From an uncultured Clostridia bacterium (GTDB taxonomy: Bacteria; Bacillota; Clostridia; TANB77; CAG-508): a stretch of DNA of 61,578 nt. Shown one piece after another: positions 16,229 to 18,780 of the stretch. Under the pieces are notes generated by a model. The model was not told the origin of the DNA. It ran no database searches and saw nothing but the letters and a program-made list of their open reading frames with translations. The stretch lies in assembly GCA_944388705.1 (NCBI GenBank), contig CALXJU010000004.1, positions 1-61,578 of the forward strand, in the 5' to 3' direction. Position 1 is the stretch's first letter. Each line of letters begins with the position of its first letter. The position numbers and the translations under genes were made by a program.

Positions 16229-17455
16229 ATGGCAAGAGACAACAAAATTGACGCAACAACAACATTAAAGGAGGGATTGGCACTTTGTCCATTAGATGGG
16301 CGGTATTCTCAAATCAGTAAGGATCTTTCTCCGTACTTCTCTGAATATGCTCTGGTAAAAAACAGAGTAAGAGTTGAAGTACTGTGGTTATGCTTCTTGT
16401 TAAAGAATGTCAAAGGTTCTGAAATTTTGGATTCTTTTGACATCAAACGACTTCCGGAGATTATGACTATCTATGAGAATTTTTCTGGAGACTCTTATGT
16501 AAGAGTTAAAGAAATCGAGGCAGACACTAATCATGATGTAAAAGCGGTGGAACTGTTTGTTGCCGAAAAACTTAAAGAAATGGGGTTTGATAATCTTGTT
16601 AGTTTTGTGCATATTGGTTGCACATCAGAGGACATTTCAAATGTTTCTTATGCAACAATGATTTCAGGTGCACTTTTTGCTGTATGGATTCCTGCAGCTG
16701 AAAAACTGATTAATGAATTATCGACAATTGCTGTTTTTCATGCTCACACACCTATGCTTGCACACACTCATGGTCAGCCTGCAACACCAACTACTGTTGG
16801 AAAAGAACTTATGGTATATATATACCGCATGCGTAAATCTTTAGAAAACATTAAATCTATTAAGATTTATGCTAAGTTCAATGGTGCAACTGGTAACTAT
16901 GCAGCAATTTCTGTTGCATTTCCTAATGACAATTGGCAGGTACTTTCAAAGACTTTTATCCAAGATTATTTAGGATTGAATTTTAATCCTATTACAACTC
17001 AAATTGAAAGTCATGACTACATCTGTCACATTGCAGATGGTATTCGCCACTTTAACAATGTCCTTTTGGATTTTGATGTTGATATGTGGCTGTATATCAG
17101 TATGGAGTACTTTAAACAGTTGGTTGTCAGTACAGAGGTTGGTAGTAGCACCATGCCACACAAAGTCAATCCAATTAGATTCGAGAATAGCGAATCTAAT
17201 ATTGACATGTCTAATGCTATTTTTACAGCATTATCCAACAAGTTGCCGCGTTCTCGTATGCAACGTGATTTGTCTGATTCCTCTTCTCAGAGAAACAGAG
17301 GTAAAAACATCTCTAAAGAGGCAATTCATGATTTTATCAAATCTCTTGATATGCTTTCTGATGAAGATAAGTCTACACTTCTTAATTTGACTCCTTCAGA
17401 CTATGTAGGTCTTGCCAGCAAAATTATAGCTGACAATAGCAAAATTTTATTCTAA
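16229..17455 (+). CDS. purB: adenylosuccinate lyase (E. coli-type PurB) with an internal in-frame deletion of about 64 codons; possibly non-functional
   Basis: Aligns along recalled E. coli PurB (PLDGRYS, TNHDVKAVE, HTHGQPATPTT, GSSTMPHKVNPI, MQRDLSDS). It then jumps from ...QRN directly to RGKNISKEAIHDF..., skipping the LGVGIGY...KLKELT segment. Confidence 0.8.
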   Translation: MARDNKIDATTTLKEGLALCPLDGRYSQISKDLSPYFSEYALVKNRVRVEVLWLCFLLKNVKGSEILDSFDIKRLPEIMTIYENFSGDSYVRVKEIEADTNHDVKAVELFVAEKLKEMGFDNLVSFVHIGCTSEDISNVSYATMISGALFAVWIPAAEKLINELSTIAVFHAHTPMLAHTHGQPATPTTVGKELMVYIYRMRKSLENIKSIKIYAKFNGATGNYAAISVAFPNDNWQVLSKTFIQDYLGLNFNPITTQIESHDYICHIADGIRHFNNVLLDFDVDMWLYISMEYFKQLVVSTEVGSSTMPHKVNPIRFENSESNIDMSNAIFTALSNKLPRSRMQRDLSDSSSQRNRGKNISKEAIHDFIKSLDMLSDEDKSTLLNLTPSDYVGLASKIIADNSKILF

Positions 17456-17559: not shown

Positions 17560-17748
17560 ATGAAGTTTACAGTGACAATTCGGTATCCAAATGGAAAGAT
17601 AACAACTTATGAGAATGTTCCTGGATCATTACTAGAATATGGTGCTAGAACTAATTATTGCCGTTTTACAGATAAAGATGGCAAATCACATATTATTATT
17701 GGTGCCATCATAACTTGTGATGAGGAAACTTCAGAAGATGCATTTTGA
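17560..17748 (+). CDS. hypothetical small protein (62 aa)
   Basis: ORF with AAGGAGG RBS and its own GC-rich terminator. Confidence 0.5.
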   Translation: MKFTVTIRYPNGKITTYENVPGSLLEYGARTNYCRFTDKDGKSHIIIGAIITCDEETSEDAF

Positions 17749-17753
17749 TTGCA

Positions 17754-17791
17754 AAAACTGGTGTGCGTGGAAACACGCGCACCAGTTTTTT
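17754..17791 (+). terminator. intrinsic terminator
   Basis: CTGGTGTGCGTG/CACGCGCACCAG stem followed by TTTTTT. Confidence 0.8.
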
Positions 17792-17865
17792 ATTATAAAA
17801 ATCCACTAAGTGGTTGACGAATAAGATTTTAAAATAAACCAATTTACATGCCAAAGCAGTGTAGC

Positions 17866-18243
17866 TTACTTTTTATATATTTTATATTTATCACATAAAT
17901 TTAATGTACTTCTATTAGATATTATTTCTTTTGGTATCATATACATATCAGTTTCTTTTGTTACTACAAATAAATAATCAACATTTGTATCTATAACAGT
18001 TTTATATGTATTTCCTTTAGTTCCTCCACAACTTTTTAATGCTACTTGATAATTTCCATATTTAGTTTTACAAGATGTATATTTTACTTGTACACTCTCT
18101 ATTTTATTATCTTTATCTATTAATAAATCATAATCTTGGGTATCATTAAGTGGAATTGATACTATATATCCATTTGTAGTAAAATACGCTATTGCAATTC
18201 CTAATCCACAGTTTCCTTTTTGTTTATTTGTATAATCTATCAT
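17866..18243 (-). CDS. PD-(D/E)XK endonuclease of the group I intron-associated type (I-Ssp6803I-like family), free-standing
   Basis: 125 aa. KQKGNCGLGIAIAYFTTNGYIVSIPLNDTQDYDLLIDKDNKIESVQVKY fits the family pattern (KG...GY.V..P..D...YDL..D....VQVKY), giving a D-x(n)-(E/Q)-x-K core. Confidence 0.6.
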   Translation of the reverse strand: MIDYTNKQKGNCGLGIAIAYFTTNGYIVSIPLNDTQDYDLLIDKDNKIESVQVKYTSCKTKYGNYQVALKSCGGTKGNTYKTVIDTNVDYLFVVTKETDMYMIPKEIISNRSTLNLCDKYKIYKK

Positions 18244-18259
18244 TTCTTCATCTCCCCAT

Positions 18260-18296
18260 AAAAAAAATAAACTTAGAAGAGTATTCTTCTAAGTTT
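18260..18296 (-). terminator. strong intrinsic terminator immediately after tRNA-Tyr
   Basis: AAACTTAGAAGA/TCTTCTAAGTTT perfect 12-bp stem, 4-nt loop, then A-TTTTTTTT on the minus strand. Confidence 0.8.
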
Positions 18297-18299
18297 GGG

Positions 18300-18600
18300 T
18301 GGTGGACAGGGATGGATTCGAACCATCGTACTCGTATGAGAACAGATTTCTTACTACTATAGTTTTCACTACCATATACATGTTTGTAGTCTGGACTTTC
18401 TCTTCATCTCTTTTAGATGCCTGGTATAAAGTCTCTACACTCGAAATTTCTTTCTAGCTCGGGATTATCATCAGCATTATCTGTTAAGACTTCCCCGAAT
18501 TAGCCAAGTTTTCACTATACAATTCCTTGTATAGGCTGCAATTTCTGCTTGTTCAGCAAAGCATACAGTCTGCCGCCTTTAGCCACTCGGCCACCTGTCC
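18300..18600 (-). tRNA. tRNA-Tyr (anticodon GTA), class II, interrupted by a 215-nt intron in the anticodon loop
   Basis: Exon 1 (18565-18600) is GGACAGGTGGCCGAGTGGCTAAAGGCGGCAGACTGT. Exon 2 (18300-18349) is AAATCTGTTCTCATACGAGTACGATGGTTCGAATCCATCCCTGTCCACCA. Joined, they give an 86-nt tRNA with loop CTGTAAA, a long variable arm and an encoded CCA. Confidence 0.85.
18350..18564 (-). ncRNA. group I intron (IC3-like) inserted between U35 and A36 of tRNA-Tyr
   Basis: The intron follows a U and ends in G. Hairpins fit P2 (CTATACAA/TTGTATAG), P3 (CTTGG/CCAGG), P8 (CATCT/AGATG) and P9 (ACTAC/GTAGT). Core strings AATTCGGGGAAGTCTTAA and GTGTAGAGACT resemble the recalled Azoarcus tRNA-Ile intron. Confidence 0.75.
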
Positions 18601-18633: not shown

Positions 18634-18710
18634 TGGTGCTCCCGCTAGGACTTGAACCTAGGACCCACCGGTTATGAGCCGGTTGCTCTGACCAACTGAG
18701 CTACGGGAGC
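18634..18710 (-). tRNA. tRNA with CAT anticodon: tRNA-Ile2 (lysidine type) or elongator tRNA-Met; not an initiator
   Basis: Cloverleaf GCTCCCG...CGGGAGC-A-CCA with anticodon loop CTCATAA. The paired 1:72 position excludes fMet. The overall sequence resembles recalled B. subtilis tRNA-Ile(CAU). Confidence 0.8.
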
Positions 18711-18751: not shown

Positions 18752-18780
18752 AGTATAATCTATTTTTGTATCTTTGTCAA
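18752..18780 (-). promoter_or_regulatory. sigma-A promoter of the tRNA operon
   Basis: Minus strand TTGACA-17 nt-TATACT. Confidence 0.6.

Follow-up and report, generated by a model that had tools for sequence, protein, structure and literature searches.

We analysed a stretch of 61,578 nucleotides (nt) from an uncultured Clostridia bacterium (GenBank assembly GCA_944388705.1, contig CALXJU010000004.1, positions 1 to 61,578), called here the window and used as the reference stretch, and found that a small gene of 125 amino acids (aa) directly behind an intron-bearing tRNA-Tyr gene belongs to the PD-(D/E)XK endonucleases of the I-Ssp6803I family (PF11645). Its open reading frame (ORF) begins with ATG at 18243 and ends with the stop codon at 17868-17866 of the minus strand, and both the ORF and tRNA-Tyr are single-copy in the window. 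Homologs of the gene recur behind tRNA-Tyr in other gut Clostridia and among the tRNA genes of phages; the comparison loci and contigs are labelled with L-numbers (for example L001, L053). The features of the locus, in the order of transcription, are the following.

18752..18780, minus strand: promoter-like site TTGACA-17-TATACT with 11 of 12 consensus matches, a predicted promoter (promoter scan)
18634..18710, minus strand: tRNA-Met(CAT), the first gene of the tRNA-Met/tRNA-Tyr transcription unit (tRNA search)
18565..18600, minus strand: 5' exon of tRNA-Tyr(GTA) (ARAGORN with intron option; cross-locus comparison)
18350..18564, minus strand: probable group I intron of 215 nt without an ORF, in the anticodon loop (RF00028, ARAGORN i(37,215), core blocks, intronless alleles)
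18300..18349, minus strand: 3' exon of tRNA-Tyr(GTA), with CCA encoded (ARAGORN with intron option; spliced sequences of 70 loci compared)
18259..18296, minus strand: intrinsic-terminator-like hairpin of 12 pairs with a T-run, between tRNA-Tyr and the ORF (hairpin scan)
18251..18257, minus strand: Shine-Dalgarno-like GGGGAGA, 7 nt 5' of the ATG (read from the sequence)
17866..18243, minus strand: free-standing PD-(D/E)XK endonuclease gene of the I-Ssp6803I family (PF11645), 125 aa (ORF list, Pfam, 2OST sequence match, AlphaFold2, Foldseek)

ARAGORN, run with its intron option, placed the whole split tRNA-Tyr(GTA) gene at 18600..18300 of the minus strand. Behind it, the hairpin proper occupies 18296..18269 and the T-run then reaches to about 18259. 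An earlier reading of this DNA (the original prediction) had described the endonuclease gene as free-standing and outside the intron, directly behind a strong terminator and with no room for a promoter of its own. All three points held: the intron contains no ORF and the gene starts after the tRNA 3' end, the 12-pair hairpin and its T-run lie immediately upstream, and a minus-strand promoter scan from the operon promoter (18780..18752) to the ORF found no other promoter-like site. The short spacer was also seen correctly, and its length, first given as 57 nt, is 56 nt from the tRNA-Tyr 3' end to the ORF start. The GGGGAGA stretch within it differs among strains with an identical ORF.

The intron (18564..18350) matched Rfam family RF00028 with 42.1 bits (E=1.2e-9), below the gathering score of 50 and in the 321-nt search only, and it follows the splice-site rules with U at the end of the 5' exon and G at the end of the intron. 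It is inserted between the second and third anticodon bases of tRNA-Tyr with a 1-nt ambiguity, its extent is delimited by exact intronless alleles in five related species (L047, L053, L071, L081, L093), and its core blocks are conserved across 61 introns. As read from the sequence, the tRNA-Tyr anticodon arm, CAGACTGTAAATCTG, forms a near-palindrome with the intron insertion site at its centre. The intron escaped Rfam searches of 2.5-kb and 36-kb stretches because of their speed filters, and together with default ARAGORN these wider searches overlook the tRNA-Tyr at 18300-18600 as well, so that automated annotation may report tRNA-Tyr absent from such genomes. A 20-nt pattern from the core of the tRNA-Tyr intron also matches group I introns which occupy the same site of the anticodon loop in further tRNA genes of metagenome contigs, namely tRNA-Leu TAA (L187, L209, L248), tRNA-Leu AAG (L217) and tRNA-Thr TGT (L244), and none of these five has the ORF downstream.

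A Pfam search matched residues 6-109 of the ORF product to PF11645 (PDDEXK_5) with 69.2 bits against a cut-off of 26.1 (E=4.7e-19). I-Ssp6803I (2OST) was the only sequence match in the PDB, with E=1.2e-4 from the single sequence and E=1.7e-13 over chain residues 3-119 when a family profile of 50 sequences was used. The AlphaFold2 model of the product, built on an alignment of 50 sequences, had a mean predicted local distance difference test (pLDDT) score of 94.2 and replaced a discarded model from a shallow alignment of 16 close homologs (pLDDT 49). Foldseek again returned 2OST_A as the best match in the PDB (E=3.9e-8, template modelling (TM) score 0.79, 27% identity), and the runners-up, MepB, EcoRV, Hjc resolvases and the SPARDA nuclease domain, were far weaker. 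In the motif alignment, D39 ... Q52-V-K54 of the product stands against 'YD ... VQVK' of 2OST, and D39 and K54 are the putative catalytic residues, going by the catalytic positions of I-Ssp6803I. PADLOC matched its 'HEase' model (E=1.5e-6) and no other defence-system model, PHROGs gave a match only to a family without known function, and the NCBIfam search of the product returned nothing meaningful. The product therefore belongs to the PF11645/I-Ssp6803I family by sequence, fold and motif, as the original prediction had claimed when it proposed the profile search and the structural comparison that now bear it out, and it is predicted to be a small site-specific PD-(D/E)XK DNA endonuclease. A maturase or RNA-level role of the protein was considered as well and found no support.

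The gene is well preserved. The ORF was intact in 91 of 94 copies, with D34, Q36, D37, D39 and K54 invariant in all 94 and Q52 in 93 of them, and the motif residues were also kept in the copies beside intronless tRNA-Tyr genes. Truncated or extended copies were few (L061, L075, L047). Among 16 members, 47 positions were invariant, and the median pairwise ratio of nonsynonymous to synonymous substitution rates (dN/dS) of the ORF was 0.225; the ORF is under purifying selection.

The protein database contained 1732 homologs at E<=1e-3, of which the best 120 were at least 71% identical and came nearly all from metagenomes (one was named as a protein of a Clostridia metagenome-assembled genome, MAG), and the library-wide search of homologs yielded 1340 clusters when grouped at 50% identity. 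Scanning a single genome for each species gave 161 relatives, and the best 80 of the 161 (64-78% identity), all from uncultured gut Clostridia MAGs, were analysed as loci. Locus counts here and below were seeded by the ORF or by the intron core and cover loci with at least one of the two. The context upstream of the ORF was as follows.

59 of 80 loci: intron-bearing tRNA-Tyr adjacent to the ORF (3 on contigs starting inside the intron)
2 of 80 loci: intron-bearing tRNA-Tyr at 1.1-2.0 kb
5 of 80 loci: intronless tRNA-Tyr at 50-73 nt
12 of 80 loci: no intact tRNA-Tyr
2 of 80 loci: contig too short to judge the context

In 64 of the 80 loci the ORF lay at most 700 nt (mostly 50-110 nt) downstream of a tRNA-Tyr, and of 65 related loci, 54 had a terminator-like hairpin plus T-run in the spacer between the two, and 61 had a Shine-Dalgarno-like motif there. 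The flanking protein genes vary from genus to genus; therefore, the conserved unit is tRNA-Tyr plus the ORF. The pairing of an ORF-less intron with an adjacent free-standing endonuclease gene, which the original prediction had read from the one locus, thus extends to 59 of 80 species, but the strict link to the intron which it implied did not stand, as ORF and intron come apart in both directions. The survey of co-occurrence it had called for gave the same divided answer, with the 59 loci on one side and the 5 intronless loci and the 12 without an intact tRNA-Tyr on the other. Occurrence of the ORF independently of any intron, which had been named in advance as an observation speaking against the idea, was accordingly found at a part of the loci.

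All 12 loci without an intact tRNA-Tyr keep the succession '...CACCA, hairpin, T-run' directly 5' of the ORF. Three of them (L039, L052, L083) retain a decayed tRNA-Tyr 3' end, and the remaining nine have a short unit with its own promoter-like site; GCACCA forms the end of this unit, and the usual hairpin terminator comes after it. These units are about 70 or 135 nt long, lie 70-175 nt upstream of the ORF and fall into two groups (group A: L018, L064, L065, L069, L087; group B: L051, L055, L079, L086); in the units of the nine ectopic loci no tRNA was called, nothing in Rfam matched and no consensus fold was convincing. In a GC-richer lineage (L286, positions 54-900), tRNA-Ala(TGC) comes after a 45%-identical homolog and is in turn followed by an intron-bearing tRNA-Tyr; this is an independent co-occurrence of the endonuclease family with a tRNA-Tyr intron.

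The separation of ORF and intron was seen most clearly where one of them is missing. L053 and L071 have an intact ORF, and their whole intronless tRNA-Tyr equals the spliced gene of intron-bearing relatives. In L047, L053 and L071 the ORF has all motif residues and lies 67-73 nt from an intronless tRNA-Tyr whose anticodon arm is unchanged, and in L081 and L093 the anticodon stem bears a compensatory change from C:G to T:A, the only such variant found (2 of 5 intronless loci against 0 of 62 intron-bearing ones, p=0.005). On the ORF tree, the positions of these intronless loci are dispersed, which indicates several independent events. In the other direction, a metagenome scan seeded with the conserved intron core produced 109 loci with sufficient flank, and the ORF was present downstream in 66 and absent in 43; about 33 of these 43 are tRNA-Tyr with the intron, that is, about one third of the intron-bearing tRNA-Tyr loci.

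Comparisons of close relatives indicated that the ORF behaves as a cassette. L208 and L269 have introns which are 100% identical and ORF alleles which are only 73% identical in nt, with unrelated spacers and terminators. L208 and L289 have tRNA, intron and terminator 100% identical, and a block of about 395 nt, comprising the ribosome-binding site (RBS) and the ORF, is cleanly absent from L289. Presence and absence at the same locus were found in the pairs L208/L289, L269/L302, L035/L301, L216/L194 and L057/L193, so the ORF is intergenic and variably present among close relatives, as expected of a free-standing gene. Between the window and L001, the ORF is identical at 378 of 378 nt and the intron at 214 of 215, while the neighbouring MtaB gene is 95.0% identical (52 differences in 1039 nt) and the next gene 91.5% (Fisher p=1.5e-7 for ORF against MtaB divergence). 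The spacer of the same pair matches at 44 of 56 positions, with the changes clustered in the hairpin loop and the RBS, and L004 repeats the pattern of L001. The ORF thus forms an island of 100% identity between strains whose flanks differ by 3-8%, which is consistent with the cassette having spread recently while its expression signals turned over.

Homologs in phages pointed to the tRNA gene. A tblastn search against GenBank phages gave 57 records (33-50% identity), and the homolog lay inside a tRNA array and on the same strand in 8 of 9 distinct phage lineages: a T5-like coliphage, Bacillus phage BCP12, Vibrio phage River4, a Klebsiella phage, Acinetobacter phage CP14, Pseudomonas phage KoPa-4, a Felixounavirus and a 735-kb uncultured phage. 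Among 80 IMG/VR loci (38-63% identity), tRNAs were found in 78, all on the strand of the ORF, and 67 had a tRNA within 100 nt of the homolog. De-duplication of the IMG/VR loci by clustering at 80% identity left 54 clusters, of which 44 were tRNA-adjacent, and the adjacent tRNAs were Tyr (19) and Ser (13) in 32 of 60 cases against a background of 59 of 460 (p=7e-14). Phage homologs of the ORF (L103-L182, L094-L102) end 0-13 nt before, or start 4-92 nt after, the tRNA-Tyr or tRNA-Ser; Tyr and Ser together are enriched four-fold, and there is no enrichment of tRNA-Leu, the third tRNA with a long arm. The phage tRNAs beside the homologs showed no standard group I intron, and the intron core pattern was absent from the viral contigs searched. 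As the phage homologs flank intronless tRNAs and some clostridial copies do so too, the constant partner of the protein family is the tRNA gene, especially tRNA-Tyr, and not the intron. The closest relatives outside the clostridial clade are those in lytic phage tRNA arrays.

Concerning expression, contigs from four gut metatranscriptomes join 18348 to 18564 and omit exactly 215 nt. The identical joint also occurs in DNA metagenomes, and the contigs carry the variable-loop variant of another species; the joint therefore does not prove that the intron is spliced in this organism. A single contig of a metatranscriptome (926 nt, depth about 12) extends from 17599 to 18578 and includes the ORF, the terminator, the unspliced intron and part of the 5' exon. 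The anatomy of the locus indicates that low-level expression of the ORF probably arises when the tRNA-Met/tRNA-Tyr transcript reads through. In two chicken-gut metagenomes (runs X25 and X26), intronless tRNA-Tyr DNA with near-identical exons was 7-20 times as abundant as the window species, so potential intronless alleles coexist in the community.

Taken together, we presume, with a probability of roughly 55%, that the gene is a free-standing homing-endonuclease cassette of the I-Ssp6803I family which has specialised in tRNA loci and owes its low-level expression to the tRNA operon. The observations behind this reading are the family, the fold, the conservation of the motif, the position of the gene, its presence, absence and replacement in the manner of a cassette, and its association with tRNA genes in both phages and bacteria. 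From them we infer nuclease activity, a target, homing and terminator read-through. A compact selfish cassette of RBS and ORF (about 395 nt) would be lodged just behind the tRNA-Tyr terminator and, being promoterless, would be made at a low level through read-through from tRNA-Met/tRNA-Tyr, and repair from a cassette-bearing copy would spread the cassette together with the linked tRNA region. The tRNA-Tyr group I intron would be a separate element in the same gene, travelling with the cassette mostly by physical linkage; it may also shield the tRNA gene from cleavage, as in collaborative homing, which would not be needed for the ORF to persist. A collaboration of the ORF with the intron may exist and is not required.

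Several points weigh against a mobile cassette. The ORF identity of the window to L007 is 81%, with 75% for MtaB next to it, and in two other syntenic genomes the identities of ORF and MtaB are 77 and 77% and 69 and 74%, so that over long times the ORF looks vertically inherited and constrained; for a homing-endonuclease gene that is purely selfish, purifying selection over such times is unusual. The 3' end of the ORF (the last 10-40 nt) is retained in the two ORF-less alleles examined in detail, clearly in L302, where about 40 nt are still there relative to L269, and probably in L289; therefore, these two alleles are deletions and not virgin target sites. The region is mosaic in general, with the adenylosuccinate-lyase gene 79-88% identical between strains, and for this reason the low-divergence island of the ORF could be the product of ordinary recombination. 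The 926-nt contig is compatible with terminator read-through but may also be a carry-over of DNA.

The alternative nearest to this reading, though less likely than it, is strict collaborative homing in trans, in which the endonuclease would cut intronless tRNA-Tyr at the insertion site in the anticodon loop, and the ORF-less intron would protect its own genome and be mobilised with the neighbouring ORF. The founder enzyme I-Ssp6803I is specific for an anticodon region, a near-palindromic arm centred on the insertion site would suit an enzyme acting as a symmetric oligomer, an intron-bearing gene precedes 59 of the 64 ORFs adjacent to tRNA-Tyr, and the homolog of the unrelated lineage L286 is again found beside an intron-bearing tRNA-Tyr. 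The confinement of the anticodon-stem variant to intronless loci points the same way, but it could also reflect release from the pairing constraint of the intron itself. What makes this alternative doubtful is the independence of the two elements: L047, L053 and L071 keep an intact ORF beside an intronless tRNA-Tyr with an unchanged anticodon arm, the ORF has been lost on intron-bearing backgrounds, approximately 33 tRNA-Tyr loci with the intron are ORF-less, and in phages the homologs flank intronless tRNA-Tyr and tRNA-Ser with the intron core absent. The coexistence of the ORF with intronless tRNA-Tyr is not decisive, because SegB sites are tolerated by T4 in tRNA genes of its own (PMC2330249).

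A wider form of this idea, which we offer only as a speculation, is that PF11645 proteins are a lineage of endonucleases specialised on tRNA genes and recognising near-palindromic tRNA-arm DNA, with the clostridial tRNA-Tyr intron serving as the immunity element for a neighbouring free-standing gene, that is, a cellular collaborative-homing pair before capture of the ORF by the intron. If this is true, the locus would be a living intermediate for the origin of mobile tRNA introns of the I-Ssp6803I type, and the preference for tRNA-Tyr and tRNA-Ser in phages would be a target specificity for tRNA genes with a long variable arm.

It is rather unlikely, in our view, that the gene is instead a domesticated nuclease which is no longer mobile and serves the host at the tRNA locus, in nucleic-acid metabolism or defence. 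Its presence in at least 80 species, the dN/dS of 0.225 with 47 invariant positions, a divergence resembling that of MtaB, and the Hjc resolvases and SPARDA nuclease domain among the structural neighbours after 2OST would all agree with a host function. However, the ORF is dispensable, since about a third of the intron-bearing tRNA-Tyr loci do without it, some on near-identical backgrounds; it can be exchanged like a cassette; partner genes are lacking, and the only PADLOC model it matches is 'HEase'; and its nearest outside relatives reside in the tRNA arrays of lytic phages, where homing-endonuclease genes are classically at home. An inactive relic of a decaying homing-endonuclease gene is very improbable: the truncated or extended copies (L061, L075, L047) and the ORF-less alleles which are deletions would fit the decay phase of a homing cycle in some lineages, but the window carries a full-length copy in which all conserved residues are present, intact copies number 91 of 94, the dN/dS is low and the nt sequence of the ORF is 100% identical across strains.

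The neighbourhood downstream of the cassette varies among strains. A conserved ORF of 62 aa (17560-17748, plus strand) with its own terminator at 17763-17782 converges on the endonuclease gene; it had no NCBIfam family match and was seen in strain-level relatives only. The adenylosuccinate-lyase gene (16229-17455, plus strand) encodes 408 aa in the window against 470-472 aa in L001 and L004, and L001, L004 and L005 have about 190 extra nt at window position ~17297, apart from which the identity to the window is 96-100% for L004 and L005 and 82-84% for L001. This gene is strongly mosaic among strains (79-100% aa identity). In two chicken-gut metatranscriptome assemblies, 61 nt from the ORF stop codon (window 17809-17871) are swapped for 5 nt, a strain variant that alters the C-terminus and the 3' flank of the ORF.

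To our knowledge, PD-(D/E)XK homing endonucleases are known from essentially one characterised enzyme, which is intron-encoded. Our literature search, of incomplete coverage, found no description of a group I intron in a bacterial tRNA-Tyr, of a chromosomal free-standing PF11645 gene tied to tRNA-Tyr, or of the adjacency of phage PF11645 homologs to tRNA-Tyr and tRNA-Ser. The present loci indicate that the PF11645 family is widespread as a free-standing, tRNA-linked cassette in gut Clostridia and in the tRNA arrays of many unrelated phages, and they point to tRNA-Tyr as a host gene for a bacterial tRNA group I intron. Further, they offer a system in which one can test how a common target is arrived at by endonuclease genes and ORF-less introns, and a source of candidate sequence-specific nucleases of small size (about 125 aa).

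Among known systems, stand-alone PDDEXK_5 genes of gut jumbo (Jug) phages have been counted as homing endonucleases (PMC12880540); they share the Pfam family and the stand-alone state with the window ORF, and are given there as a count only, without tRNA context, target or bacterial chromosomal counterpart. Free-standing (intronless) homing and collaborative homing have already been described (PMC3984707), an example of the latter being the free-standing endonuclease beside the intron-bearing psbA of a cyanophage (Zeng, Bonocora and Shub 2009, as cited in PMC3984707). According to that account, the cyanophage enzyme was shown to cut the intron insertion site, whereas for the clostridial pair such cutting is a proposal. 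The psbA pair belongs to a phage, whereas the clostridial case is cellular, has a tRNA as the host gene, and its ORF and intron are separable in both directions. T4 SegB is a free-standing homing endonuclease belonging to the GIY-YIG type in a tRNA gene cluster, which recognises a conserved tRNA-gene motif, spreads the linked tRNA region and leaves potential sites in its own genome (PMC2330249). Like the window ORF, SegB is encoded by a free-standing gene embedded in, and co-oriented with, tRNA genes, but its GIY-YIG catalytic fold is unrelated to PD-(D/E)XK. Further endonucleases of tRNA regions are F-TflI, F-TflII and F-TflIV of T5.

The closest known system is I-Ssp6803I (2OST) from the group I intron of the Synechocystis tRNA-fMet gene, a PD-(D/E)XK homing endonuclease (PMC3384342, PMC3424549) of the same PF11645 family and the best match in both sequence and structure. 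Both genes are linked to a tRNA gene with a group I intron in the anticodon loop. I-Ssp6803I, however, is intron-encoded, has 151 aa and resides in the tRNA-fMet of cyanobacteria, whereas the window ORF has 125 aa, lies outside the intron behind the terminator of the tRNA-Tyr of gut Clostridia, and persists beside intronless tRNA genes.

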